Notes: generated by a model not told the origin, from the sequence alone. 60,746 nucleotides of DNA, filler included, from 4 parts of 4 records of this genome joined end to end with filler, not necessarily neighbours in it, one strand, 5' to 3'. Numbered from the whole stretch's first letter, positions 13,287 to 44,928 are shown. Numbers and translations are program-made.

Positions 13287-13386
13287 NNNNNNNNNNNNNN
13301 NNNNNNNNNNNNNNNNNNNNNNNNNNNNNNTTAATTAATTAANNNNNNNNNNNNNNNNNNNNNNNNNNNNNNNNNNNNNNNNNNNN
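13287..13386. other. Artificial contig linker
   Basis: N44-TTAATTAATTAA-N44 (stops in all frames); gene content changes across it. Confidence 0.99.
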
Positions 13387-30516: not shown

Positions 30517-30616
30517 NNNNNNNNNNNNNNNNNNNNNNNNNNNNNNNNNNNNNNNNNNNNTTAATTAATTAANNNNNNNNNNNNNNNNNNNNNNNNNNNN
30601 NNNNNNNNNNNNNNNN
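30517..30616. other. Artificial contig linker
   Basis: N44-TTAATTAATTAA-N44; switch from GC-rich to AT-rich sequence. Confidence 0.99.
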
Positions 30617-31035
30617 AAATATTTTGCATCTGCCACATCTATATAGTGTGGAGTTAAATCTATTCCTCCTCCAAACCAATATTCCCCATTTTCCATTTCA
30701 AAATAACGAATGTTCATGTGGATAATCGGAACCATTGGACTTTTTGGATGCAAAACTATAGATACGCCTGTAGCAAAAAAGTCAGTTTGATCTAAGTTTA
30801 GCTTTTTTAGAATTTTATCAGGGGTTGGCCCATGCACAGCCGAGAAAGCAACCCCGCCTTTTTCAATAATTTGTCCATTTTTAAAAATTCGGGTTCTACC
30901 GCCACCACCAGCTGGTCTTTCCCACTTGTCTTCGATAAACTTGCCAGATCCATCGGCTATTTCTAGTTGGCTACAGATGTAATCCTGAATTTGGCTGTAG
31001 ATTTCAGCTATTTCTTCTTTGCTCTTGCGTGACAT
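30617..31035 (-). CDS. hemF: Oxygen-dependent coproporphyrinogen III oxidase; 3' truncated
   Basis: 'GGGGRTR', 'EKGGVAFSAVHG', 'PIIHMNIRYF', 'WFGGGIDLTP'. Confidence 0.95.
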
Positions 31036-31054
31036 TTTTATTGTAATTCTTTTA

Positions 31055-33478
31055 TTAGAAAGGATAACCTATGCCAAAGTTAAGCACAGTTTGGCCTTTT
31101 AAACCAAAGAGTCTATTGAAGGATATATTATCCAACACATAGCGCTCTCCTTCAGGCATTGAGGGATCTACTGCTTTGGTAGCCAAGTCAAGCCTGATTA
31201 CCAAGAAATTGAAATCCATCCGTAAACCTACTCCAGCTCCCACTGCTATTTCTTTATAGAACCTATTAAATCTAAAATCAGATCCTGGACGCGAGCTATC
31301 AGTACCGATCATCCAAGCATTTCCTGCGTCGACAAAAACTGCTATATCGAAATATCCAGCCAAGTTTCTTCGATATTCCAACATAGTTTCAAAGATCATC
31401 TCTGAAGGTTGCTCGAAAGCATAATCATACCGTCCTTTTTCGCCTATAGGAGGTGTATAGCTTCCTGGACCTAATCGCCTCGCTTGCCAAGCTCTTATAC
31501 TTGTACCTCCACCTGCGAAAAAATACTTTTCGTACGGGAGAATTCCGCTACTCACTCCATAGGGGTTTGCTATTCCAAAATTAGCGCGATAAGCAATAGT
31601 AGACTTTTGGTTTAAGGGATAATATCTTCTGAAATCAGCTTGAAGTTTTAGCCATTGGAATCGGGCAAAATCAGTAGTTTCGTTATTGCTTGATGCGTTT
31701 ACAAAATTCAGAGTAGTTCCGCCACTTTCTACAAAGAGCTTGAGCAGCGACGCTTTATTGGTTGAATTATAGTTTCCATAATCATTGAAATTAATGATAG
31801 ACTGAGCAGATACGCTACTGATTAAAGATGGAAGAAAAGACCAGATTAGGTTGTTTCCCTGGTCTTCCAAATCCAGCAATACCTGCCCAAATTCATCAGA
31901 AATATTAGGTGTTCTAATGTAATTAATATCTGCAGCATTGATGGTGAACTGCTGTCTATTGCCTCGGGTAACCCAGGTATATGCGAGAAGTGCATTGAGA
32001 CCAGAACGGGTGTATTCCGGGCGATTAGTATAATTATAGCCAAGTTGGGTTCTAGTGTTTGGATTGTACTGTCCAAACTTCTGTAAGCTTATTCCATAAA
32101 ATGGAATAAGGAATCTTGGGAAAATAACAGAGGCAGATGCGCCAAATTCCTTACTTTGGTAAACTCCCTGATCTGTTGCTGATGCTACTCCTTCATAACC
32201 TATTCGTGCGTTGAACTCCAGAATTTCCCCCGCTCTAAAGAAATTTCTGTTTCTCAGCACAGTACTGAAGAATGGCCCGGGTAATTGCTCTGTGATGCTC
32301 AAACCTAGCTGATTGGTCAGCTGATATTTCTGATTAGGCTGAGTTAGGATCTTGGCCGTAAGACGCGTCCCAACAGTATCAAATGAAATGTTTATATACC
32401 TGAAGAGGTCAAGGTTACTTAACTGCTTTTGAGTTTCTACGATGTCTATTCGCTTGTAAATTTGCCCTTCATCAAACAATATTCTGGAGCTAAGGAGTTT
32501 TGTAGAAAAACGATCTCTATAAAATGTAAAGTCAATATCACGATAGTTTCGCTGGATTTTTTCATCCACAAACTCATCACTAGGCGGACTTATTTTGAAA
32601 GTGATTGAATCAACACTATAGACTTCATGCTTATCTGCAAATGAGGGCTTGAGGATCCGTTGCTCAACGTTAATTTTTTTGGAAGTTGTATCGTAATAGA
32701 GATTGTAATCGATAAAACTTTTTGTAAACATGTAATATCCATTGTTTTTGAAAAGCTCTTCAAGACGTGCTCTTTCTTTAGTGAAATTGCTTTGGTCGTA
32801 GCTATCTCCTTTTACTATAAATGATTTTGTGTTTGTTTCTCTGATCAAGGTTAATAAGCCTTCATTCACCGAGTTGGTATAAATCGAATCTAGTACGTAG
32901 GGTTCTTTTTCTTCCAGAATATATGTTACTGTCGCTTTTTTCTTTTTGGTCTCTACTTCAAAGGAGACTTGAGCATCCAAAAAACCTTTATTATAGAGGT
33001 AATTATCAATTTCTATTACCGTTTTTTTGGTTTCTGCACTATCAAGGATAGTCACCGGATTTCCTGTTCTCATTAGGAAATTGCCATATTCTTCCATTTT
33101 TTCCAGATCCTGAATTTTTGTCTGGACTTTATCTCGCTTTTTAATAAGCTTTCGATTTGTCTGTTCTTCATCAAGAGATGTTTTTATCTCTTGTAGTTCC
33201 GATTCTTTCAGCGCTAGTTTTGCTCTCACTTTCGCAGAATCGTAAAAGAGCTGACCAAATCTGTAAATACTCACCCCGAGGGAGGAATTGGTAAGTGGGA
33301 TTCTGGTATTAGGTTCTTGAAAAAATAAATTCTCAATTTCAAGATGATTAGCTTTCTGTACTCCCTTAAGCTCATTATTCTCAAGGACATACTTGCCCTC
33401 AGGCAAATTTTTGCTCAGCGAGCACGCATACATGGCCCAGAGGACACAGATAAAAAGTATATATTTGGTGAATTTCAA
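31055..33478 (-). CDS. tamL: Omp85-family lipoprotein TamL (BamA/TamA family)
   Basis: TTG start gives a lipoprotein signal '..LWAMYA-CS'; POTRA-like region; 'FAGG..SIRAW..R.LGPG', 'FVDAGN.W', terminal 'FGIGYPF'. Confidence 0.88.
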   Translation of the reverse strand: MKFTKYILFICVLWAMYACSLSKNLPEGKYVLENNELKGVQKANHLEIENLFFQEPNTRIPLTNSSLGVSIYRFGQLFYDSAKVRAKLALKESELQEIKTSLDEEQTNRKLIKKRDKVQTKIQDLEKMEEYGNFLMRTGNPVTILDSAETKKTVIEIDNYLYNKGFLDAQVSFEVETKKKKATVTYILEEKEPYVLDSIYTNSVNEGLLTLIRETNTKSFIVKGDSYDQSNFTKERARLEELFKNNGYYMFTKSFIDYNLYYDTTSKKINVEQRILKPSFADKHEVYSVDSITFKISPPSDEFVDEKIQRNYRDIDFTFYRDRFSTKLLSSRILFDEGQIYKRIDIVETQKQLSNLDLFRYINISFDTVGTRLTAKILTQPNQKYQLTNQLGLSITEQLPGPFFSTVLRNRNFFRAGEILEFNARIGYEGVASATDQGVYQSKEFGASASVIFPRFLIPFYGISLQKFGQYNPNTRTQLGYNYTNRPEYTRSGLNALLAYTWVTRGNRQQFTINAADINYIRTPNISDEFGQVLLDLEDQGNNLIWSFLPSLISSVSAQSIINFNDYGNYNSTNKASLLKLFVESGGTTLNFVNASSNNETTDFARFQWLKLQADFRRYYPLNQKSTIAYRANFGIANPYGVSSGILPYEKYFFAGGGTSIRAWQARRLGPGSYTPPIGEKGRYDYAFEQPSEMIFETMLEYRRNLAGYFDIAVFVDAGNAWMIGTDSSRPGSDFRFNRFYKEIAVGAGVGLRMDFNFLVIRLDLATKAVDPSMPEGERYVLDNISFNRLFGLKGQTVLNFGIGYPF

Positions 33479-33513
33479 AATGGCAGAGTCGATCCGAATG
33501 CTTAGCAAAAATA
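33460..33513. promoter_or_regulatory. Two Bacteroidota -7 promoter elements, each inside the opposite gene
   Basis: TATATTTG (+, 33460-33467) and TATTTTTG (-, 33506-33513), both matching TAnnTTTG. Confidence 0.55.
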
Positions 33514-34247
33514 CAGTTAAGTTTATTAAATCCTTACATCAAAAGAAATTCCGAAATCAGGAACAAAAGTTCTTTGTGGAAGGTGAAAAGAGTGTTGTAG
33601 AAGTATTGAACTCAGATTTCAGGCTGGACTTACTTGTGGCTACAGATTCATTCTTTGAAAAGTATAAAAGTCTCATCGGTAAGTCTGGCGTCCAGGTGAT
33701 TTTGGCTACTCAGAATCAACTTGAAACCCTAGGTCAATACCAAAGCAATGACAGTGCGCTAGCCGTAGTTCACATGAAAACAAACAGCGCTTTTGATTTC
33801 CCAAAGGGTAATTTCGTAATTGGCCTTGACGATGTGAGAGATCCAGGAAATCTCGGAACTATCATTAGAATTGCAGATTGGTATGGCATTAAAAATCTGG
33901 TTTTTTCTGACCAGACGGCTGATTTTTACAATCCTAAAGTAATCCAATCCAGCATGGGCTCTTTTACCCGAGTCAACTTTTTTTATGCGGATTTAAAAGC
34001 TGTTTTTAAGCAATGGAATATTCCTGTGTATGGAGCATTTTTGAACGGAAAAAATGTTCACCAAATGAATCAAATCCAGGAGGGAGTGATTTTGATGGGA
34101 AATGAATCAAACGGAATTTCTACAGAACTTGAAGCTGTAGTGACAGATAAGGTGACGATTCCGGGATTCGGTGAAACTGAGTCATTGAATGTAGCTATCG
34201 CTACCGCCATACTTTGCGATAATTTCAAGCGATTGTTAGTCAGATGA
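33498..34247 (+). CDS. TrmH/SpoU-family RNA methyltransferase
   Basis: 'LDDVRDPGNLGTIIR.ADW', 'MGNESNGI', 'ESLNVAIA'. Confidence 0.95.
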   Translation: MLSKNTVKFIKSLHQKKFRNQEQKFFVEGEKSVVEVLNSDFRLDLLVATDSFFEKYKSLIGKSGVQVILATQNQLETLGQYQSNDSALAVVHMKTNSAFDFPKGNFVIGLDDVRDPGNLGTIIRIADWYGIKNLVFSDQTADFYNPKVIQSSMGSFTRVNFFYADLKAVFKQWNIPVYGAFLNGKNVHQMNQIQEGVILMGNESNGISTELEAVVTDKVTIPGFGETESLNVAIATAILCDNFKRLLVR

Positions 34248-35239
34248 TTCAAAAGTTAGCCAGAACACTCAATAAAGTCGGAATTAACGGGTTTTTGCTA
34301 GGATTATTTGCCGCTATTTTCTTAGCATGGTTATTCCCCTTTGCAGGTTCTAATCAATCTCCAGTGCCTTGGAAACCTATCATCAATGTTGGAATAGGGT
34401 TGGTTTTCTTTTTTTACGGAGTGAAGCTTGATCCAGTACAGTTGGCTACCGGGTTAAAAAACTGGAAGCTACATGTACTCATTCAGCTCACCACCTTTGT
34501 GATTTTTCCATTGCTAGTGCTTGCTCTTTTGCCTTTTATGAGCTGGATAGACAAGGATTTTCAATTAGGAATTACTTACCTCTCCGTACTTCCATCCACA
34601 GTCAGTGCCTCGGTAGTGATGGTTTCTATTTCACATGGTAATATTCCGGGGGCTATTTTCAATGCCAGTATTTCCAGCCTGCTTGGAGTGGTAATTTCTC
34701 CAGCCTGGATGGGGATTCTGGCAGATTCCTCAGACATTGAAATGGATTTCTTGCCTACACTGGGAGAGCTTTCTGTGAAAGTCTTATTGCCGGTAATAGT
34801 AGGTGTATTTGCACATAGATGGCTTTTCCCAAAAATAGAGAAACATCTATCAGCATTGAAATACGTGGATCAGTCGGTCATCATGATCATCGTATTTACC
34901 TCTTTTGCACAGTCATTTTCTCAGGATGTCTTTTCGCCATACAAATCCAGCGTTTTGCTCGAGGTGGGAGCGACCATGCTTGGATTATTTTTCCTTGTAT
35001 GGGTGGTTATTGAAGTCTTGACGAGAATGCTGGGCTTTAGCTGGGAAGACCGGGTGACGGCATTATTTTGTGGCTCCAAAAAGTCACTTGTCCAAGGTGT
35101 AGTTATTGGGAAAGTGATTTTCCCAGATCCTGCTACGTTGGGTTTGGTTCTGCTTCCACTCATGTTGTATCACATTCAGCAACTAATTGCAGGTAGTATT
35201 ATCGCATCAAGATTTTCGAGAAAGGATACCACTTCTTGA
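34244..35239 (+). CDS. Bile acid:sodium symporter family (SBF-like) transporter
   Basis: Multi-TM; 'LPSTVSASVV', 'GN...AIFNASIS', 'FCGSKKSL', 'PLMLYH..QL'. Confidence 0.9.
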   Translation: MIQKLARTLNKVGINGFLLGLFAAIFLAWLFPFAGSNQSPVPWKPIINVGIGLVFFFYGVKLDPVQLATGLKNWKLHVLIQLTTFVIFPLLVLALLPFMSWIDKDFQLGITYLSVLPSTVSASVVMVSISHGNIPGAIFNASISSLLGVVISPAWMGILADSSDIEMDFLPTLGELSVKVLLPVIVGVFAHRWLFPKIEKHLSALKYVDQSVIMIIVFTSFAQSFSQDVFSPYKSSVLLEVGATMLGLFFLVWVVIEVLTRMLGFSWEDRVTALFCGSKKSLVQGVVIGKVIFPDPATLGLVLLPLMLYHIQQLIAGSIIASRFSRKDTTS

Positions 35240-35264
35240 AAATCTGCATTAGTCTAAGAACTAC

Positions 35265-35286
35265 AAAAGCCCAATTTCGGGCTTTT
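35265..35286. terminator. Bidirectional terminator
   Basis: AAAAGCCC-AATTTC-GGGCTTTT between convergent genes. Confidence 0.8.
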
Positions 35287-35290
35287 ATTG

Positions 35291-35551
35291 TTATGTATGT
35301 GTTTTTGAGAGTTGATCCACTAGTTGTACGTATTGATCAGCAGCTTCTTCCTTGGACTTACCTTTCATGTTCATCCAAGCATTGTACTTGGCAGCTGCTT
35401 TGAAGTCAAATCCACCAGGACGTTCTGTTTCATTGTCTCCTTCAGTAGCCTGCTTGTATAGGCCATAAAGCTTTAATAGCTCCTCGTTACTTGGTTTGGA
35501 AGTGAATTTTTTTGTTGCTGCTACGGCTTCTTCAAAGGTATTGCTAGACAT
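35291..35551 (-). CDS. Acyl-CoA-binding protein
   Basis: 'PSNEELLKLYGLYKQATEGD', 'AKYNAW...KG.SKEEA..QY'; TAAATTTG promoter element at 35582-35589. Confidence 0.95.
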   Translation of the reverse strand: MSSNTFEEAVAATKKFTSKPSNEELLKLYGLYKQATEGDNETERPGGFDFKAAAKYNAWMNMKGKSKEEAADQYVQLVDQLSKTHT

Positions 35552-35625
35552 TTCTATAGTGTTTGGTTAGGGGTGAAAGCCCAAATTTAATACCAGTTGT
35601 TAATTTGCAGCTATACTTGCATATA

Positions 35626-35662
35626 AATAAAATAACCAGCTGATTCAGCTGGTTATTTTATT
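35626..35662 (-). terminator. Long palindromic terminator after gltA
   Basis: AATAAAATAACCAGCTGA-T-TCAGCTGGTTATTTTATT, 18-bp arms. Confidence 0.8.
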
Positions 35663-35685
35663 GAGTTGGGGAAGGTATTCTACGA

Positions 35686-36972
35686 TTAACGCTTATTCAT
35701 TGATACGTAGTCACGCTCATTTTCTCCAGTATATACCTGTCTTGGACGACCGATTGGTTCACCATTTTCACGCATTTCTTTCCACTGGGCGATCCAGCCT
35801 GGAAGTCTGCCTAGTGCAAACATCACTGTGAACATGTCTGTTGGGATACCAAGCGCTCTGTAGATAATTCCTGAGTAGAAATCAACGTTTGGATACAACT
35901 GACGATCGATGAAGTATTGGTCATTCAATGCTGCTTGCTCCAGCTCTTTGGCTATATCCAAAACTGGATCATTAACACCTAATTTTTCCAATACATCATC
36001 AGCTGCTTTCTTGATGATTTTTGCTCTTGGATCGAAGTTCTTGTAAACTCTGTGACCAAAGCCCATCAATCTGAATGGATCATTTTTGTCTTTAGCTTTG
36101 TCAAGATACTTCTTCGCGTCTCCACCATCTGCTTTGATCGCTTCCAGCATTTCGATTACAGATTGGTTTGCTCCACCATGAAGCGGACCCCATAGCGCAT
36201 TGATACCTGCAGAAATAGAAGCGTAGATACTAGCCTGAGAAGAACCAACAATTCTAACGGTAGAAGTGGAGCAATTCTGCTCGTGATCTGCGTGAAGAAT
36301 CAAAAGTTTGTCTAATGCTGATGCTACTACTGGATCTACGTCATACTTTTCAGCAGGAAGCGCAAACATCATTTTCAGGAAGTTTGAACAATAGTCCAAT
36401 GCATTGTCTGGATAGTTTACCGGATGACCCATTTCGTTTTTGTATGCCCATGCTGCAAAAGTTGGCATCTTTGCGATCAAACGAATAATGCTCAAGTTTA
36501 CTTCCTCTTCGGTTCTATTAGGATTCAACGAATCAGGATAGAACGCCGTAAGTGCACAAATCATGGAAGAAAGCACGCCCATTGGGTGAGCATTGGACGG
36601 GAATCCCTCAAGAATCTTTTTAATGTCCTCGTGAACTAGTGTGTGATGTGTGATTTCTTTTGAGAAACTTTCATACTGAGCTTGAGTAGGGAGTTCTCCA
36701 TAAATCAATAAATAAGAAACCTCAAGGAAGGTGGATTTCTCCGCCAGATCCTCAATTCTGTAACCTCTGTAGCGAAGAATTCCTTCTTCACCATCCAAAA
36801 AAGTAATGGCGCTTTTTGTAGCTCCTGTGTTTTTGTATCCCGGGTCTAGGGTGATAAGACCTGAGGATGCTCTAAGTTTTGCGATATCAATCGCTGATTC
36901 ATTTTCTGTTCCGGTGATTACCGGGAATTCATAGTCTTGTCCTTTGAAAGAAAGCTTAGCTGATTCAGACAT
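35686..36972 (-). CDS. gltA: Citrate synthase (type II)
   Basis: 'ILHADHEQNCST', 'LWGPLHGGAN', 'LMGFGHRVYKNFDPRA', 'YPNVDFYSG'. Confidence 0.98.
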   Translation of the reverse strand: MSESAKLSFKGQDYEFPVITGTENESAIDIAKLRASSGLITLDPGYKNTGATKSAITFLDGEEGILRYRGYRIEDLAEKSTFLEVSYLLIYGELPTQAQYESFSKEITHHTLVHEDIKKILEGFPSNAHPMGVLSSMICALTAFYPDSLNPNRTEEEVNLSIIRLIAKMPTFAAWAYKNEMGHPVNYPDNALDYCSNFLKMMFALPAEKYDVDPVVASALDKLLILHADHEQNCSTSTVRIVGSSQASIYASISAGINALWGPLHGGANQSVIEMLEAIKADGGDAKKYLDKAKDKNDPFRLMGFGHRVYKNFDPRAKIIKKAADDVLEKLGVNDPVLDIAKELEQAALNDQYFIDRQLYPNVDFYSGIIYRALGIPTDMFTVMFALGRLPGWIAQWKEMRENGEPIGRPRQVYTGENERDYVSMNKR

Positions 36973-37187
36973 ATAATTATTGTTTGGATTGCGTATTTTA
37001 AAAAACCTCGAATTAGGGTCGTAAGATAATAAAATCAGGTAGTTTTTTGGCGGTGAAAATAGCTTGGTGGAATAATATTCCTGTGAAAGTGAAAGAAATT
37101 TTAAGAAATTCTATCGATTTACTATTAAACCTCCAATAAGTCTAGTTTGTTTCTAGTGTTTGTACCTGATTATTGAAATTCAGGAAT

Positions 37188-37213
37188 AAAAAAAGCCCCG
37201 AAGGGCTATTTTT
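37188..37213 (-). terminator. Terminator of the suf-brx operon
   Basis: Minus strand AGCCC-TTCG-GGGCT followed by a T run. Confidence 0.85.
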
Positions 37214-37216
37214 ATA

Positions 37217-37639
37217 TTATGCGCAGAAATGCTCGAATACTTCAACCAAGTGGTCGCCGATCATTTTTGCGTTTCTACCTTCAATATGGTGACGCTCGAT
37301 GAAGTGAACCAATTCCCCGTCTTTGAATAGTGCCATTGCTGGAGAAGATGGAGGGTAAGGAAGACAAAGCTCTCTTAGTTTTTCCACTGCATCTCTGTCG
37401 TTTCCTGCAAAAACGGTAGCAAGTGTAGTTGGTTTTACGGGTGAATTCTCTACCGCATAAGTTACTCCTGGTCTTGCAGCTCCTGCCGCGCAACCGCAAA
37501 CTGAATTCACTACAACAAGGGTAGTACCTTTATGGTCTGGACCAAGATGCGTTGCAACTTGCTCAGCTGTTCTGAACTCTTCAAATCCTACGCTGGAAAG
37601 TTCCGCTCTCATTGGAGCGATCAATTCTTCTGGATACAT
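37217..37639 (-). CDS. BrxA/BrxB (YphP) bacilliredoxin
   Basis: 'VVNSVCGCAAGAARPG', 'TVFAG.D', 'PPSSP.MALFKDG', 'RHHIEG'. Confidence 0.93.
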   Translation of the reverse strand: MYPEELIAPMRAELSSVGFEEFRTAEQVATHLGPDHKGTTLVVVNSVCGCAAGAARPGVTYAVENSPVKPTTLATVFAGNDRDAVEKLRELCLPYPPSSPAMALFKDGELVHFIERHHIEGRNAKMIGDHLVEVFEHFCA

Positions 37640-37666
37640 AATATTACTAGTTTATATAGTTCTTAA

Positions 37667-38011
37667 TTAAAGAAAGCCCAATTCAAGTTTGGCTGCTTCA
37701 GACATCATATCCTGAGAATAAGGTGGGTCAAAGGTTAGTTCAATCTCCACATTATTGATTCCCTGAATCTGCTGGATTTTATCCTTGATCTCTGAAGGGA
37801 TAAATTCCGCAGAAGGACAATTAGGCGATGTCAATGTCATCAACACATATACATTATTTACGGGGTAAACTGTGATCTCATAGATCAATCCTAAGTCGTA
37901 CACGTCCACAGGAATCTCCGGATCATAAACCAACTTAATGGCTTGGATCACTTTTTCCTTTAGGTTTTCTATTTGTCCTACTGATGTTTCCGTTTTACTT
38001 TCTGTTGACAT
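37667..38011 (-). CDS. sufT: SUF system Fe-S assembly protein (DUF59/SufT)
   Basis: 'VYDPEIPVDVYDLGLIY', 'MTLTSPNCP', 'FDPP...MMSEAAKLELG'. Confidence 0.9.
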   Translation of the reverse strand: MSTESKTETSVGQIENLKEKVIQAIKLVYDPEIPVDVYDLGLIYEITVYPVNNVYVLMTLTSPNCPSAEFIPSEIKDKIQQIQGINNVEIELTFDPPYSQDMMSEAAKLELGFL

Positions 38012-38015
38012 ACTA

Positions 38016-38447
38016 TCAGGCATTTTGCTTGGTTTGAATAGCCAAAGCGTATAGTTTTATTTGCTTGATCATCGAGGCAAATCCATTTGAACGCTGACTT
38101 CCGATGATAGAGCCCATTCCGATTCTCTCTACGAAATTTAGTTCCGCCTTGATAATCTCTTCTGGGCTACGATAGTTCAATACTCTCAATAAAAGTGAGA
38201 TCAATCCTTTGGTAATATCTGTGTTGGAATCAGCTTGGAAATGTACTTTTCCATCTTTCTCATCCGCAATCAACCATACTTTGGATTGGCAACCTTTGAT
38301 GGTATTTTCCTCGATTCTCTCATTTTCAGGGAAATCTTCCAGGCTTCCACCCAGCTCCATGATGTAATAAATCGTGGATTCTTTGTCATCCCCAAGGATT
38401 TCAAATTCCGAAACTATCTCATCTTGAACTTCCTGAATACTGCTCAT
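38016..38447 (-). CDS. sufE: Sulfur acceptor SufE
   Basis: 'IKGCQSKVWL', 'ADS...ITKGLI', 'QRSNG'. Confidence 0.93.
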   Translation of the reverse strand: MSSIQEVQDEIVSEFEILGDDKESTIYYIMELGGSLEDFPENERIEENTIKGCQSKVWLIADEKDGKVHFQADSNTDITKGLISLLLRVLNYRSPEEIIKAELNFVERIGMGSIIGSQRSNGFASMIKQIKLYALAIQTKQNA

Positions 38448-39667
38448 TTATTTTTAATTCTGGCAATTCGGCTTAGGCCTTCTGCCAATTTATCTATTTC
38501 TGATTTCGAGTTATAAACCGAGAAAGAGGCTCTCACAGTTCCCTCCAGTCCCAATCTTTTCATCAATGGCTGCGTACAGTGATGACCAGTTCTTACCGCT
38601 ATTCCATTAGCATCGAGCATCATTCCTACATCGTAAGGATGCATTGCATTGATATTGAATGAGAGTACACTAACTTTTTCCTTTGCTGTTCCTACAGGGA
38701 CAAAGCCCTTGATTTGGGACAGTTGTTCGTTCGCATAGCTAAGTAGCTCGTCTTCATGTGCTCTAATAGCATCTTTACCTAGTTCGTTGATAAAGTCAAT
38801 AGCTGCTTTGAAAGCGATGACATCGCCAATATTTGGAGTGCCGGCTTCGAATTTGAAAGGGATTTCATTGTAAGTGGTCTTTTCAAACGTCACTTCTTTG
38901 ATCATCTCTCCACCACCTTGATAAGGAGGCATACTTTCAAATACTTCTCTTTTTCCATATAGACAGCCTAGTCCTGTAGGCCCATAAAGCTTATGTGCTG
39001 AGAAAGCGAAGAAATCACAATTCAATGCCTGTACATCGATCCGTAAGTGACTGGAACTTTGCGCTCCGTCCAATAAAACTTTTGCTCCAACAGCATGGGC
39101 TGCATCAATTACCTGCTTGACAGGATTGATGGTTCCCAACGCATTTGATGCATGAACGATACTCACCAATTTGGTCTTAGGAGAAAGTAGTTTTTCGAAT
39201 TCTTCGAAAAGAATTTCCCCAGCCTCGTTGATAGGAATTACTTTTAAAATAGCTCCTTTTTCCTCGCAAAGCATTTGCCAAGGCACAATGTTGGAGTGAT
39301 GCTCCAATGTAGAAATGATGATCTCGTCACCTTTTTCCACGAATTTTCTCCCAAAAGTAGAAGCTGCCAAGTTGATGCCTTCTGTAGTTCCCTTAGTGAA
39401 AATGACCTCTGCAGCTTCGCGGGCATTTATAAAATGCTGAATAGCTTCTCGGGTTTCTTCGAAATAACGAGTTGCTCGATCAGCTAGCGCATGAGCTCCG
39501 CGGTGAATGTTTGAATTATCATGCTGATAATAATTCGTCAGTGCATCAAGTACAGCTTGAGGCTTTTGAGTTGTAGCGGCATTATCAAAATAGACCAAAG
39601 GTTTGCCATGCACTTCTTGATGAAGCACGGGGAACAAACCTCTGATTTTTTCTATGTCTAATCCCAT
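38444..39667 (-). CDS. sufS: Cysteine desulfurase SufS
   Basis: 'YFDNAATTQKP', 'EHHSNIVPWQ', 'SAHKLYGP', 'RTGHHCTQP'. Confidence 0.97.
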   Translation of the reverse strand: MGLDIEKIRGLFPVLHQEVHGKPLVYFDNAATTQKPQAVLDALTNYYQHDNSNIHRGAHALADRATRYFEETREAIQHFINAREAAEVIFTKGTTEGINLAASTFGRKFVEKGDEIIISTLEHHSNIVPWQMLCEEKGAILKVIPINEAGEILFEEFEKLLSPKTKLVSIVHASNALGTINPVKQVIDAAHAVGAKVLLDGAQSSSHLRIDVQALNCDFFAFSAHKLYGPTGLGCLYGKREVFESMPPYQGGGEMIKEVTFEKTTYNEIPFKFEAGTPNIGDVIAFKAAIDFINELGKDAIRAHEDELLSYANEQLSQIKGFVPVGTAKEKVSVLSFNINAMHPYDVGMMLDANGIAVRTGHHCTQPLMKRLGLEGTVRASFSVYNSKSEIDKLAEGLSRIARIKNK

Positions 39668-39670
39668 TTC

Positions 39671-40939
39671 TTAGAAGTTACTTCCTAAGCGTTCCTGAAC
39701 TTGCGCTATGCAATAGTCTCGGAAGCTCTCATCTGTGATATGCTCGATTACTTCTCCAGCTACTGCATAAAGCAATAGACCTCTTGCCTGCTCTTTGCCA
39801 ATTCCTCTTGCTTGTAGGTAAAATAATGCTTCTTCATCCAACTGACCGGTTGTACAGCCGTGAGAACATTTTACATCGTCAGCCCAGATTTCGAGTTGCG
39901 GTTTAGTATTCACCACAGCATCTTCTGATAAGAGGATATTGTTGTTCTGCTGAAAAGCATTGGTCTTCTGAGCATCTTGTCTTACAAAGATTTTTCCGTT
40001 GAAAACTCCTCGTGAACTGCCAGCCAGAATACCCTTATATAGCTCATTGGATTCACTGTGTGGTACAGTATGATCCACATTGGTATGATTATCCACGTGA
40101 GATTTGCCATCAAGCAAATATAAACCGTACATATTGCCTTCAGAATTTCTTCCAAGGATATTGATGCTGAGGTTGTTTCTCACCATTTCTCCAGAGAGTG
40201 AAATGTTCACTGAAGTGAATCTTCCGTCTTTCTGAATGTCTGTCTCTATATTGCTTACCTCGATCGCATTTTCACCTTCATTCTGCAATTTGTAGTAACG
40301 TATCTGAGTGTTTACTCCTCCTTTCACTTCCACAACTTTATTTACAAAGTAGGATGCATCACTAAGGTTCACACTGTGATTGATGAAAGTTACTTCTGCG
40401 AAATCCCCAGCTTCAATCCAAACTCTAGGTTGAATCACTTGACCAGCGTTAGCTTTAAAGAAATTCAAGAATAGGATAGGCTTCTGGATCTGAGCTTTTT
40501 TTGGAACGGAAATGAAAACCCCTCCGTCAAAAGAACTTTGGTTCAAAGCACAAAACGGATCTTTCTCTGGCTTAGCAATACTTCCAAGGGCTGTACTAGC
40601 TTTTTCTGAAAGAGGTGAGATCTCGACACCCTCTACCGTAGAAGAAAGTGCTTGCTGGAAATGCCCATTGGTAAATACCAAAACATCTCCTTCGAAACCT
40701 TCAAATACATTTGATTTCACTTGCTCAGCAGTTACTTCAAAAGCTCCTGCTAACTGAAAGTTTTGAATTCTCTGCTCTATCTTTTTAGTGATCGCGGTGA
40801 ATTTGTACTCTTCTGATTTATTGGTAGGGAATCCTTGGGCTTGGAAAGCTTCCTTTCCTGCTACACGAACTTGCTCAAAGCCAGTTCCTGCATTTGCCAA
40901 TAATTCCACAAGTATATCTTGCTTAATAAGCGTACTCAT
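39671..40939 (-). CDS. sufD: Fe-S cluster assembly protein SufD
   Basis: 'FNGKIFVRQDAQKT', 'KPQLEIWADDVKCSHG', 'LFYLQARGI'. Confidence 0.96.
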   Translation of the reverse strand: MSTLIKQDILVELLANAGTGFEQVRVAGKEAFQAQGFPTNKSEEYKFTAITKKIEQRIQNFQLAGAFEVTAEQVKSNVFEGFEGDVLVFTNGHFQQALSSTVEGVEISPLSEKASTALGSIAKPEKDPFCALNQSSFDGGVFISVPKKAQIQKPILFLNFFKANAGQVIQPRVWIEAGDFAEVTFINHSVNLSDASYFVNKVVEVKGGVNTQIRYYKLQNEGENAIEVSNIETDIQKDGRFTSVNISLSGEMVRNNLSINILGRNSEGNMYGLYLLDGKSHVDNHTNVDHTVPHSESNELYKGILAGSSRGVFNGKIFVRQDAQKTNAFQQNNNILLSEDAVVNTKPQLEIWADDVKCSHGCTTGQLDEEALFYLQARGIGKEQARGLLLYAVAGEVIEHITDESFRDYCIAQVQERLGSNF

Positions 40940-40961
40940 GAGTGATGTTTTAGGATGAAAA

Positions 40962-41726
40962 TCAAACGGTCGCCTTGGAATCTACTTCGTCTTTGATCCA
41001 GTCGTATCCTTTTTCTTCTAGCTCTAGTGCAAGCTCTTTAGTACCTGATTTTACAATTTGTCCTTTATATAAAACGTGAACAAAATCAGGGACGATGTAA
41101 TCCAACAAACGCTGGTAATGAGTTACCACTATAGTTGCGTTGTCTTTTGACTTCAATTGATTCACTCCGTTTGAAACGATACGAAGCGCATCGATGTCAA
41201 GTCCTGAATCAGTTTCATCCAAAATAGAAAGGGTAGGGGCAAGCATAGCCATTTGGAAGATCTCATTTCTCTTCTTTTCTCCACCAGAGAAACCTTCGTT
41301 CAGTGCTCTGCTTAGCAGCTTCTGATCCATTTCTACCAGTTTCATTTTCTCTTTCATCAGTGTCAAGAATTTCACCGCGTCAAGGGCTTCTTCACCACGG
41401 TATTCTCTCACTTGATTTACTGCAGTTCTTAGGAAGTTAGTCGAGCTAACTCCTGGAATCTCTACAGGGTACTGGAATGCTAGAAATACACCTTCTCTTG
41501 CTCTATCTTCTGGAGAAAGGTCAAGTAAATCTTTTCCTTTGAAAGAGACTTCTCCTTCAGTCACTTCATATTCTTCTCTACCTGCCAAAACTGAGGCAAG
41601 AGTAGATTTACCAGAACCATTTGGTCCCATGATCGCATGAACTTCTCCTGCTTTCACTTCTAGGTTGATACCTCTTAGGATTGGAGTCCCTTCGATAGAG
41701 GCGTGCAAATTCTTTATTGTTAACAT
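40962..41726 (-). CDS. sufC: Fe-S assembly ATPase SufC
   Basis: GPNGSGKST, 'AFQYPVEIPGV', 'GFSGGEKKRNEI', 'LDETDSGLDIDAL'; ATG at 41726. Confidence 0.97.
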   Translation of the reverse strand: MLTIKNLHASIEGTPILRGINLEVKAGEVHAIMGPNGSGKSTLASVLAGREEYEVTEGEVSFKGKDLLDLSPEDRAREGVFLAFQYPVEIPGVSSTNFLRTAVNQVREYRGEEALDAVKFLTLMKEKMKLVEMDQKLLSRALNEGFSGGEKKRNEIFQMAMLAPTLSILDETDSGLDIDALRIVSNGVNQLKSKDNATIVVTHYQRLLDYIVPDFVHVLYKGQIVKSGTKELALELEEKGYDWIKDEVDSKATV

Positions 41727-41758
41727 AATTTTAAATTTGACATTTGATATTTGAAATT
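41727..41758. repeat. Heptamer array, arm abutting the sufC start codon
   Basis: A-ATTTTAA-ATTTGAC-ATTTGAT-ATTTGAA-ATT on +; inverted copy at 42167-42198. Confidence 0.85.
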
Positions 41759-41773
41759 GGGGCAACCTTACTT

Positions 41774-42166
41774 TTAGCTTTTAAACTTGTTTCCCCTTAT
41801 CTCACTGTCCTTTAAATATTTTATAAAGCCGGAAATAGACTTGCTGATTTCGAGACTTTTTTCACTAGTTATACTAAGTGTTTCTTCTGTGATAAATTTT
41901 CTGTCAAAAGCTCTGTAAAGTTGAGACCTTGACTCTCCTGCTGTTGCTTTGGCAATACTCAAGAATTGGATAAATTCTCTATTTCCTTCTCGCTCAAAAC
42001 CTTCAGCTATATTGTCCATGATAGATCCAGAAGATGAATTAATTTGATTTTTCAGACTGAAATCATTGCTAAAACCATCTTGTTGAGTTAAGTCAAAGAT
42101 AATCTTGCAATATTCTCTCGCCTTTTTCCAGATGTCTAGATCTTCAAAGCGAGTGATGGTTGCCAT
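41774..42166 (-). CDS. Four-helix-bundle protein (23S rRNA IVP / TIGR02436 family)
   Basis: '[10 protein letters not shown]', '[39 protein letters not shown]'. Confidence 0.93.
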
Positions 42167-42198
42167 AATTTCAAATCAGAAATTTCAAATCTCAAATT
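42167..42198. repeat. Heptamer array, arm abutting the four-helix-bundle start codon
   Basis: Minus strand reads A-ATTTGAG-ATTTGAA-ATTTCTG-ATTTGAA-ATT; 26/32 inverted match to 41727-41758. Confidence 0.85.
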
Positions 42199-42201
42199 CC
42201 G

Positions 42202-43647
42202 TTACCCAACAGATCCTTCTAGCGTCAATGCCAACAACTTCTGTGCTTCAACAGCAAATTCCATTGGCAATTGATTCAATACCTCTTTTGCATAACCGTT
42301 GACGATCAAAGCAACTGCATCTTCAGTAGCGATACCTCGTTGGTTGCAATAGAAAAGCTGGTCTTCACCGATCTTCGAAGTAGTCGCTTCATGCTCTACT
42401 TTCGCTGTTGGGTTATTGATGTCTATGTAAGGGAATGTGTGTGCTCCACAGCGATCACCCATCAGTAGAGAGTCACACTGAGAGAAGTTACGTGCATTTG
42501 CCGCACGTTTCATTACCTGCACTTGACCTCGATAAGAGTTCTGGGATTTACCTGCGGAAATACCTTTGGAAACGATCCTTGACTTAGTGTTTTTACCAAT
42601 ATGAATCATTTTCGTTCCCGTATCTGCCTGCTGATAATTATTAGTAACGGCTACAGAATAAAATTCACCGATCGAATTATCTCCTTTAAGGATACAAGAA
42701 GGATATTTCCAAGTCACTGCCGAACCAGTTTCTACTTGTGTCCAAGAGATTTTGGAGAAGTCACCCGCGCAGATACCTCGTTTAGTTACGAAATTGTAAA
42801 TCCCGCCTTTTCCTTCTTTATCACCTGGGAACCAGTTCTGAACAGTTGAATATTTAACTTCAGCATGAGCTCCAGCGTAGATTTCTACTACTGCCGCATG
42901 CAATTGATTCTCATCACGCTGCGGTGCTGTACAACCTTCCAAATAGGATACGTAAGATTCATCTTCAGCCACAATCAGTGTTCTTTCAAACTGACCGGTA
43001 TTTGCAGCATTGATTCTGAAATAGGTAGAAAGCTCCATTGGGCAACGAACGCCTTTTGGAATAAAACAGAAGGAACCGTCAGAGAATACAGCAGAATTTA
43101 GCGCTGCATAATAATTGTCAGTCATTGGTACGACCGAACCTAAATATTTCTTAACCAATTCAGGATGCTCTTTTACAGCTTCGCTGAAAGAGCAGAATAC
43201 GATTCCAAGTTTAGAAAGAGTTCCTTTGAATGTAGTAGCTACAGAAACTGAATCAAGAACTGCATCCACAGCTATCCCTTGGAGTTTCTTCTGCTCATTC
43301 AAATTAATACCTAAGCGCTTATAAATATCCAGCAATTCAGGATCTACTTCATCCAAACTCTTTGGTTTGTTAGTCTGTTTTGGGGCAGAATAATATTTGA
43401 GAGCTTGTAAGTCAATTTTAGGGTAGTGCACATTAGCCCACTTCGGCTCAGCCATGCCCTCCCAAGTTTTGAACGCTTTCAATCTCCAATCAAGAAGCCA
43501 TTGAGGCTCTTCTTTCTTGGCAGAAATCCATCGGATAGTTTCTTCAGTTAACCCTACAGGAGCCTCATCGGCTTCATAGTTCACTGACCATCCGTGTTCG
43601 TATTCTTTTGATGTTAGTTCTTCTAAAATTTGATTGTCTTTGCTCAT
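42202..43647 (-). CDS. sufB: Fe-S cluster assembly protein SufB
   Basis: '[13 protein letters not shown]', '[18 protein letters not shown]', 'YLEGCTAP', 'QQADTGTKM', 'EHEATTSKI'. Confidence 0.98.
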
Positions 43648-43658
43648 TTTTGCTGAGT

Positions 43659-43692
43659 TATTTAGACTAATTACATTTTAACGGCGAAGGTA
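43659..43692 (-). promoter_or_regulatory. suf promoter element and possible iron-responsive operator half-site
   Basis: TACCTTCG (-, 43685-43692), a variant of TAnnTTTG; TATTTAGA motif at 43659 also found in the palindrome at 43857-43877. Confidence 0.4.
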
Positions 43693-43802
43693 CAACATAT
43701 AATGAAAATAATATGTTTTTACTCATTGGATAATTCTATCGAGCATATAAGTGTTCGATAGAAAATGCCCTTATCGTCCAATCTATACCGTCTTTACAAA
43801 AA

Positions 43803-43828
43803 AAAAGTATTGAAGGTTCAATACTTTT
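43803..43828 (-). terminator. Terminator after the Lrp gene
   Basis: AAAAGTATTGAA-GG-TTCAATACTTTT with a flanking A run (T run on -). Confidence 0.75.
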
Positions 43829-43880
43829 CGTTTTAAATGAATTTGTATAAATCTTTTATTTAGATTTAATCTTAATTGGC

Positions 43881-44354
43881 TTATTTCTCTTTATCAAAAA
43901 ACTGTATAGGTCTGTTTATTGATTCTTCCAATACGATCAATGTTTCTGTTCTATCAATTCCTTCCACTTTTTGAATATTGTCAAGCACAAATCGCAGATG
44001 ATTGGTGTCTCTACATATAATTTTTGCAAAAATCGAATAGTTTCCTGTCGTATAATAAGCACTTACTACTTCGGAAATTGTCTTGAGTTTTTCAATAACA
44101 GTATCATATAAGGAGCTTTTTTCAAGGTAGATGCCTAAAAATGCGGAAATGTCATATCCTAGTTTTGAGAAATCAATATTTAAAGTTGCACTTTTTACGA
44201 TACCCATATCCTCTAGTTTTTTCATGCGCACATGAACAGTTCCTGAGGATACAAAGACTTTTTTAGCGATTTCCGTGTATGGAGTCTTCGCATCTTCATT
44301 CAAAAGAGAAATGATCTTTAAGTCTATGTTATCGATATCTAAAATTTTGTCCAT
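43881..44354 (-). CDS. Lrp/AsnC-family transcriptional regulator
   Basis: 'IDLKIISLL..DAKTPYTEIAK...VSSGTVHVRMKKL', RAM domain 'YYTTGNYSIF', 'RTETLI.LE'. Confidence 0.95.
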   Translation of the reverse strand: MDKILDIDNIDLKIISLLNEDAKTPYTEIAKKVFVSSGTVHVRMKKLEDMGIVKSATLNIDFSKLGYDISAFLGIYLEKSSLYDTVIEKLKTISEVVSAYYTTGNYSIFAKIICRDTNHLRFVLDNIQKVEGIDRTETLIVLEESINRPIQFFDKEK

Positions 44355-44615
44355 TTTTATCGAGTGATTTTGGATGATTGTTAATGAATCTGCCTGTAAA
44401 TTAGAGATTGTTCAAAATATAGCAAAATTTTTTTTTCAATTTGTAATTAAAAGTAAAATCTACTTACTTTGGACCTGATATAAATGTTCAATCGAATATT
44501 TTGTTCATAGAGTAAAAAGTCGAATTAAAATTTGAGATCATTTGCATTTCCAAATTTTAGTTTAATTTCTTCTGAAACTTTTAATCTCTAAAGTTATATT
44601 TGGGTTTATATTCTG

Positions 44616-44651
44616 AAAAGGGTCTTGCTTTTGGCAAGACTTTTTTGTTTT
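44616..44651 (+). terminator. Orphan Rho-independent terminator
   Basis: GTCTTGC-TTTTG-GCAAGAC followed by TTTTTTGTTTT; no CDS upstream on +. Confidence 0.7.
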
Positions 44652-44828
44652 CTGTTTAAAATTTATAATACATAAAATTGTATTTGAAAAATTAAAAGCT
44701 GTATTTTTGTGTTATGTGTATCCGCTTTTCAACCAAAAGGTGGCAAAAGCAAGGTAACTTAAGAATTGAGGCCACATTGGTCATCGCTCTTCCAATTTGA
44801 TAAGCAAAGAATCTAAGGTGACTGGCAA

Positions 44829-44928
44829 NNNNNNNNNNNNNNNNNNNNNNNNNNNNNNNNNNNNNNNNNNNNTTAATTAATTAANNNNNNNNNNNNNNNN
44901 NNNNNNNNNNNNNNNNNNNNNNNNNNNN
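44829..44928. other. Artificial contig linker
   Basis: N44-TTAATTAATTAA-N44; switch back to GC-rich sequence. Confidence 0.99.

Follow-up and report, generated by a model that had tools for sequence, protein, structure and literature searches.

Introduction

The best described relatives of the element discussed here are the intervening sequences (IVSs) of bacterial 23S rRNA. According to the available text of a paper on Coxiella burnetii (PMC4990558), the IVS of this species is 428–444 nt long, contains an open reading frame (ORF) of the S23p family, and has a 28-bp terminal stem which is cut mid-stem by RNase III. Two to three tandem heptamers are found directly upstream of the ATG, their number varying between strains, and the ORF is in reductive evolution (PMC4990558). 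Here, we describe a 475-nt cassette in a protein-coding operon. It is located between sufB and sufC in a DNA stretch of 60,746 nt (the window), and consists of a 130-aa gene of the same family placed between two inverted arrays of heptamers, here called arms. The IVS design in an mRNA operon is a variant of a known element type. In a literature search, from whose coverage most subscription journals were missing, IVS-type cassettes were described neither for mRNA operons nor elsewhere outside rRNA.

To our knowledge, the function of 23S rRNA IVSs and of S23p proteins has been an open question since the 1990s. Two further groups of elements are useful for comparison. Stems located between cistrons and cut by RNase III are found in polycistronic mRNAs, as in the early transcripts of phage T7 and in the rnc and pnp leaders. 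Short tandemly repeated heptamers (STRRs) occur in cyanobacteria, while the repetitive extragenic palindromic (REP) and MITE-like sequences are palindromic intergenic repeats.

Organisation of the cassette

All features are on the minus strand of the window, and are described in the direction of the mRNA. The TAA stop codon of sufB (42202..43647; 481 aa; NF008773, 892 bits) is separated by three nucleotides, CGG, from the 5' arm (arm 1; 42167..42198, 32 nt). This arm is made of four imperfect heptamers of the AUUUGAA type together with their edges, is rich in G and poor in C, and runs directly into the ATG of the 130-aa gene (41774..42166). The TAA of this gene is followed by a 15-nt trailer (41759..41773), and then by the 3' arm (arm 2; 41727..41758, 32 nt), which is the inverse array, with units of the UUCAAAU type, rich in C and poor in G. 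It runs directly into the ATG of sufC (40962..41726; 254 aa from the ATG at 41726; 400/375 bits, with the profile aligned from residue 1). The coordinates thus bear out the order of elements given in the initial annotation of this DNA, including the claim that each arm ends exactly at a start codon.

Manual pairing of the arms over their 32 nt gives 26 Watson–Crick pairs, one G·U pair and five mismatches, which reproduces the complementarity originally reported. An inverted-repeat search lengthens the repeat to 47 nt per arm (41721–41767 against 42158–42204), with 79% complementarity. Inwards, codons 1–3 of the 130-aa gene pair with the trailer 3' of its stop, GGUUGCC in the trailer being matched to the AUG-proximal GGCAACC of the ORF; outwards, the repeat covers the sufB stop and codons 1–2 of sufC. 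The extended 5' half (42158..42204) therefore comprises the sufB stop, arm 1 and the first three codons of the enclosed gene, and the extended 3' half (41721..41767) includes the first two codons of sufC.

Tandem Repeats Finder identifies both arms as arrays of period 7 with 4.6 copies, and finds no other period-7 array above 2.1 copies in the window. A pattern derived from the arms matches only the arms (three matches in the window, none expected). The 130-aa gene is the sole ORF of at least 60 aa on the coding strand between the arms. There is no transposase or recombinase gene between them, and so the cassette is not an autonomous insertion sequence or transposon; nor, at E <= 1e-8, do the 46 remaining ORFs of the window include a reverse transcriptase, a transposase or a second member of the family. 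No terminator-like site was found between sufB and sufC in a terminator scan, and no Rfam family matches the region 41400–42500. A scan for sigma-70 promoters showed no enrichment, Bacteroidota-type promoters being outside the models of the scan.

The pairing of the arms is far stronger than in shuffled sequences. The minimum free energy (MFE) of the full cassette is −117 kcal/mol, compared with −96.7 ± 6.0 kcal/mol for shuffles (z −3.4), and 0 of 100 shuffles reach it. The terminal stem, formed by the extended repeat halves, is present in both the MFE and the centroid folds. The arm duplex calculated by RNAduplex has an energy of −37.6 kcal/mol, compared with −17.6 ± 3.6 kcal/mol for dinucleotide shuffles, and is reached by 0 of 500. 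The alignment score between the arms is 44, with a maximum of 19 in 20 shuffles and of 34 in 168 mismatched upstream/downstream pairs from other loci. The idea that the arms close a long stem, with the ORF looped out and both start regions covered, is therefore supported as a prediction by the fold and duplex energies, and the stem would be expected to form in vivo.

The encoded protein

The protein scores 99.1 bits against TIGR02436 (cut-off 24) and 101.3 bits against PF05635 (23S_rRNA_IVP; cut-off 33.8), and therefore belongs to this family. AlphaFold (AF2) generates a confident model (pLDDT 96.0) with four long helices, which form a four-helix bundle. The solved structures closest to the model are 2gsc (TM 0.80/0.89) and 2rld (TM 0.74/0.88). 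Both are S23p-family structures which are matched by sequence too, and each deposited entry contains five chains. An S23p-family protein of Xanthomonas is cited as a homopentamer in the available text of the Coxiella paper (PMC4990558).

The model also superimposes on Avd, from the diversity-generating retroelement (DGR) of a Bordetella phage (4dwl; TM 0.74/0.88, rmsd 1.7 Å, 9% identity). PF05635 is stated to resemble Avd in a DGR review (PMC10053308). The assignment to PF05635/TIGR02436 with an Avd-related structure, which formed the background of the initial annotation, thus holds, on the basis of the profile scores and of this superposition. The predicted fold is shared with Avd, but the cassette does not have the character of a DGR: the bAvd Pfam model gives only 15.8 bits, below its cut-off of 40, the gene is flanked by sufB and sufC, and the ORF search above (E <= 1e-8) detected no reverse transcriptase, template and variable (TR/VR) repeats being outside the search.

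Comparison with known elements

The cassette resembles the Coxiella IVS, as the latter is presented in the available text, in its protein family and its size (475 nt against 428–444 nt), in the terminal inverted repeats that close a predicted stem around an S23p ORF, in the tandem heptamers next to the ORF start, and in an ORF that decays while the RNA element persists, as described below. In contrast to the 23S IVSs, it is located in the spacer of a protein-coding operon, and not in helix 45 of 23S rRNA. In addition, both suf arms are heptamer arrays, and also carry two start regions. Excision by RNase III has been demonstrated for the Coxiella IVS, whereas for the suf cassette it may be supposed by analogy.

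The T7, rnc and pnp stems provide a possible working analogy, being long imperfect stems between cistrons that are cut to uncouple or activate the flanking messages. However, they enclose no gene and are not built from tandem repeats, and cleavage of the suf stem is so far presumptive. As in STRR and REP sequences, there are intergenic arrays of 7-nt units, and gene-less arrays or foldbacks occur at the sufB–sufC junction of relatives. The cassette is set apart from STRR and REP, as these are commonly described, by the inverted pair of arrays around one gene family and by units that are specific to the locus.

Distribution of arms in the family

Comparisons were made with the nearest genome, G001, which matches window positions 30617–44828 at 99%, and with its relatives. 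G001 has 11 family genes, every one of which is flanked by short-period arrays with a unit of its own. The family is present in 119 of the 151 genomes of a phylum sample, with about 786 matches, and Bacteroides thetaiotaomicron, used as a control, likewise matches the family model. We analysed 42 elements, namely that of the window, the 11 of G001, and the best match of each of 30 genomes. Mismatched pairs served as the control for complementarity between upstream and downstream flanks: 30 of the 42 elements lie above the 95th percentile of this control, and 11 lie above its maximum. Seven elements appeared to have direct rather than inverted arrays. On reading ±330 nt, six of these proved to have complementary arrays nearby, either in foldbacks next to the gene or in the form of a more distant partner arm, while L009 has no complementary array within this distance. 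Strong periodicity was found in 28 of 119 flanks, with a period of 7 (19 flanks) or 8 (9 flanks) only, compared with 1 of 116 coding stretches used as controls. Inverted arrays around the gene are thus a family trait. The inspection of other TIGR02436 genes for such flanks, recommended in the initial annotation, hence shows that inverted arrays of period 7 or 8 are common.

The arms have a strong polarity. On the coding strand, the 5' arm has more G than C in 34 of 35 informative cases (335 G and 119 C), and the 3' arm mirrors this (p 2e-9, computed without correction for relatedness). The orientation of the arms is therefore fixed relative to the gene. The 5' arm ends no more than 10 nt from the ATG in 15/42 strong cases. 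Both neighbours are co-directional with the cassette in 50 of 57 sampled copies. The upstream neighbour shares the strand of the cassette in 54 of 58 cases, the baseline from other pairs of adjacent genes being 77 of 103. The spacers beside the cassette have medians of 58 and 46 nt. There is no LSU rRNA within ±1.5 kb at the 15 loci scanned (all 11 G001 copies and four others).

The repeat units share no convincing core. AG occurs 31 times (26.6 expected) and AGT 16 times (8.7 expected), which is non-significant over 64 trinucleotides. Across contexts, arm and protein similarity show no overall correlation, with a Spearman coefficient of approximately 0 on the 5' side and 0.08 on the 3' side. 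Only where the proteins are at least 60% identical (8 pairs) do the arms resemble each other more than background, and inconsistently even there. Three close relatives, L052, L055 and L060, with ORFs of 71–74% nucleotide identity, lie in three contexts that are unrelated to one another. Both arms are common to L052 and L055 (the 5' arm at 91% over 33 nt, the ORF at 74%), and homology stops beyond the arms.

It is worth adding two observations on individual copies. On contig 1 of G001 (747169–748835), genes L001 and L004 lie 1.3 kb apart and are 63% identical, with unrelated arm units, which implies fast arm turnover. In L060 (genome G139), GC-rich hairpins alternate with the heptamer arms both upstream and downstream of the gene, and about 110 nt past the stop there is a tRNA gene.

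The sufB–sufC junction in related genomes

The junction was examined in 60 genera of the taxonomic family. The gap between sufB and sufC is 15–213 nt in 54 of them, in agreement with the statement that the two genes are normally adjacent, and a family gene occupies the junction in five (G001, G009, G035, G024 and G056). In a tree of 59 proteins, which does not include the residents of G024 and G056, the proteins at this junction in the window, G001, G009 and G035 fall into a single clade (99/93), separate from the paralogues in their own genomes. Resident proteins are about 50% identical to one another. Their arm units vary, being UUUGAA/UUCAAA, UUUCUU/AAGAAA, UUUCGA/UCGAAA or, in G024, GGUUUGU/AAGAACC, and yet each pair is still complementary. 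The arm duplex is below the shuffle mean in all 11 orthologous cassettes, and in six it is reached by at most one of 500 shuffles; the corresponding numbers are 5 for L143, 13 for L136, 26 for L142 and 29 for G056. Orthologues thus keep complementary arms despite the change of unit, and this clade of sufB–sufC residents with differing yet complementary units is a new finding.

Within the genus, 41 genomes were matched and 30 junctions could be read (29 new ones and that of G001). Seven of the 30 are filled, so that the comparison of presence and absence proposed earlier finds both states among related genomes. The filled state needs at least four changes on the sufB+sufC tree. One clade of filled genomes has two empty ones nested within it, with a support of 98, which indicates loss of the cassette. 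Divergence of the cassette ranks in the same order as divergence of the flanks, which fits vertical descent. The suggestion of a mobile cassette is therefore supported for the family, where L052 and L055 carry gene and arms in unrelated contexts, but not for the window copy, which is an old vertical resident and whose relatives are all located at sufB–sufC. In three of the eight within-genus copies (seven genomes and the window) the ORF is broken, by a change of ATG to AAG, a 4-nt deletion or a 1-nt insertion, while the arms are retained.

Scars after loss are marginal: the nested empty spacers score 34 against arm 1 (shuffle maximum 33), and L146 scores 40 against arm 2 (shuffle maximum 39). 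Loss of the cassette by deletion between the two AAATTATG copies at the arm ends is thus no more than a conjecture.

Some junctions contain other structures. G053 (L039) has a gene-less, pure (AAGATTT)x7 array in a 56-nt gap, G054 (L037) has two gene-less heptamer arrays in a gap of 125 nt, and G020 (L095) has a gene-less foldback of two inverted heptamer arrays in a gap of 91 nt. Such structures could be remnants of cassettes since lost, or else landing pads. The 465-nt gap of G027 (L104) contains an ORF of 151 aa with a hydrophobic N-terminus, which is not a member of the family. The junction thus looks like an insertion hot spot. In one congener, G241 (L122), the junction is filled by a sequence whose length is exactly 475 nt. 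This sequence was considered as a homologue of the cassette and rejected, having no similarity, no family match and no significant end pairing (−18.3 kcal/mol).

Conservation of the arms

The two 32-nt arms of the congeners differ from those of the window by 1.6–7.8%, except in G233, the most distant of them, where the difference is 23%. Third codon positions in these genomes diverge by 19–55% for sufB and sufC, and by 15–50% for the cassette. Spacers of 21 empty junctions were used as a yardstick. Where third-position divergence is 0.4–0.5, these have a median divergence of 0.284 (32 pairs), compared with 0.090 for the arms (12 pairs). One bin further, the spacers stand at 0.468 (165 pairs) and the arms at 0.250 (10 pairs). 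Among congeners the arms therefore diverge about three-fold less than the empty-site spacers. Arms in the lineages with a broken ORF differ by 6–8%. The arms of the suf copy are thus under a measurable constraint, even in the three of eight copies whose ORF is broken, and this is a new finding.

Third positions of the enclosed ORF are themselves less diverged than those of the flanking sufB and sufC in the same pairs of genomes (for example 0.145 against 0.35/0.19, and 0.30 against 0.46/0.45). Composition, a constraint from RNA structure, and exchange are possible causes.

The suf operon and the window

The rest of the suf operon lies downstream on the minus strand (37667..40939), where profile searches identify sufD (39671–40939), sufS (38444–39667), sufE (38016–38447) and a SufT-like gene (37667–38023). 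The window consists of four contigs joined by N44-TTAATTAATTAA-N44 linkers at 13287–13386, 30517–30616 and 44829–44928. Its GC content is 52–62% up to 30.5 kb, about 40% in 30617–44828, and 61–65% after 44.9 kb. Only the AT-rich 14.2-kb piece with the suf operon matches G001 (at 99%), and the assembly looks like a mixed bin. The last ~115 nt of the AT-rich contig (~44713–44828) are a dispersed repeat with 45 further matches in G001, at 69–100% identity, which is probably why the contig ends there.

A model for the suf cassette

On the basis of these observations we hypothesise that the suf element is an old, co-transcribed and vertically inherited cassette of the IVS type, whose stem holds the ORF in a loop and has been retained for the sake of sufC expression. 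We hold this model with confidence and doubt in about equal parts. The 475-nt cassette would have replaced the entire sufB–sufC spacer long ago, and would since have been co-transcribed with the suf operon, inherited vertically and repeatedly lost. In the polycistronic RNA the arms would pair to form an imperfect stem of about 47 bp, which would loop out the ORF and place the sufB stop beside the sufC start. The host would now rely on the stem, or on the sequences of the arms, for proper expression of sufC. The sufC start would most probably be freed by a double-strand-specific cut, as in the 23S rRNA IVSs, or by ribosomes that terminate on sufB, 3 nt upstream, and in doing so open the base of the stem. 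The arms would be under purifying selection, and the passenger gene would be dispensable and decaying.

An RNase III gene is present in G001, and the enzyme is detected in 149 of the 151 genomes of the phylum sample. By analogy with the IVSs, RNase III might cleave the sufB–sufC stem; such a processing site and a translational switch, both put forward in the initial annotation, are hypothetical. G136 and G180 (genus g78, approximately 2.0–2.3 Mb, 100% complete) have no RNase III as judged by TIGR02191 or PF14622.

A number of results weigh against the model. These two complete genomes, in which no RNase III is detected, contain three full-length cassettes with arrays, of which one is clearly complementary (reached by 9 of 300 shuffles) and the other two weakly so. 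In other groups of orthologous cassettes the arm-bearing spacers diverge about as much as third positions (for example 0.41/0.54 against 0.47), which confines the constraint to the suf copy; for that copy, the genome pairs used to compare arms with spacers are phylogenetically non-independent. Among the non-Watson–Crick positions of the 42 arm pairs there are 64 G·U and 55 A·C (p 0.46), and 189 other mismatches, so that there is no sign of wobble tolerance at the RNA level. Changes in the arms within the genus are not compensatory; for example, four species have in common a T-to-A change that disrupts a pair while the partner base is unaltered. The duplex energy of −38 kcal/mol weakens to −23 to −30 kcal/mol in some congeners, L142 being the copy already noted as reached by 26 of 500 shuffles. 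Because the changes are non-compensatory and the duplexes weaker, it may be the primary sequence rather than the pairing that is conserved.

The absence of a G·U excess over A·C on the sense strand, and the persistence of arms in genomes without detectable RNase III, also speak for the view that the arms are the DNA-level ends of a non-autonomous foldback or hairpin element, with a complementarity kept by slippage or arm conversion rather than by a function in RNA. The inverted arrays would then work in cruciform DNA or in single strands while the element is inserted, excised or copied. Of the alternatives this one survives best, and it is favoured by the joint presence of gene and arms in unrelated contexts (L052/L055), by the gene-less arrays or foldback at the same junction in G053, G054 and G020, by the duplication or folding back of some arrays beside the gene, and by the four or more gains and losses within one genus. 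Nevertheless we consider it unlikely. No transposase is found in the cassette, nor among the 46 remaining window ORFs at E <= 1e-8, and an idle DNA end would not predict that an immobile, vertically inherited copy has arms about three-fold more conserved than empty spacers. The strand polarity (34/35) and the co-orientation with host operons suggest a strand-specific role linked to transcription, although single-stranded DNA could also be strand-specific.

A distinctly unlikely alternative is that the arrays are binding sites for a ring oligomer, each subunit taking up roughly one unit. By occupying the G-rich 5' array next to its own ATG, the protein would autoregulate translation, compete with the stem, and free the downstream start. 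The five chains in each of the two solved homologues, and the homopentamer cited for Xanthomonas in the available text (PMC4990558), would be in keeping with the four to five units per array at a constant period of 7–8. The 5' arms are also consistently G-rich and close to the ATG (≤10 nt in 15/42 strong cases), and close relatives in different contexts keep the same unit. However, the units have no common core, and arm similarity does not track protein similarity, being at background below 60% identity and inconsistent above it. Moreover, the arms are conserved in the three lineages where the ORF is broken, although a paralogue could act there in trans. The earlier suggestion that the protein binds the heptamers is therefore not sustained.

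The arms might instead matter only as A/U-rich leaders, that is, as the initiation regions of the 130-aa gene and of sufC, with the pairing being incidental. It is true that each arm ends exactly at a start codon, that the spacers of empty sites are also more conserved than third codon positions, and that changes within the genus are non-compensatory. But the arms are about three-fold more conserved than the sufC leaders of empty sites, and arm 1 is conserved even where the gene that it would serve is dead. Across genera the units change in a complementary manner on both sides, and in the family as a whole complementarity is above controls in 30 of 42 elements. We therefore regard this explanation as quite improbable.

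Finally, a chance product of two AT-rich, low-complexity spacers has a negligible probability, since, although the region is indeed AT-rich and repetitive, 0/500 and 0/100 shuffles reach the observed values, mismatched upstream/downstream pairs have a maximum of 34 against 44 here, and the design recurs around family genes.

Implications

The cassette model for the suf locus can be extended to the family, in a form that we consider very doubtful but that is worth stating. S23p/TIGR02436 cassettes would be widespread selfish intervening sequences of mRNA, whose cost is silenced at the RNA level, on which hosts come to depend, and which are propagated by an Avd-like ring. Units of gene plus arms would insert between the genes of operons. 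Their polar arms, rich in G on the 5' side and in C on the 3' side, would fold and then be cleaved or unfolded, which would leave the expression of the host cistrons unchanged. In time the host could come to depend on the arms, as at sufB–sufC. The protein ring would assemble on the G-rich array of heptamers and aid propagation of the element, possibly via an RNA intermediate in the manner of Avd.

Whatever the mechanism, it must account for two regularities that hold throughout the family, the G-rich 5' arms and the period of 7–8. The suf copy is a favourable test case, as it is located in an essential operon and its arms are measurably constrained, whereas its passenger gene is not. Among close relatives there are copies whose ORF is naturally broken, junctions from which the entire cassette has been lost, and arm arrays without a gene. 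If the same type of element is common in ordinary operons, then it can be studied away from the ribosome.
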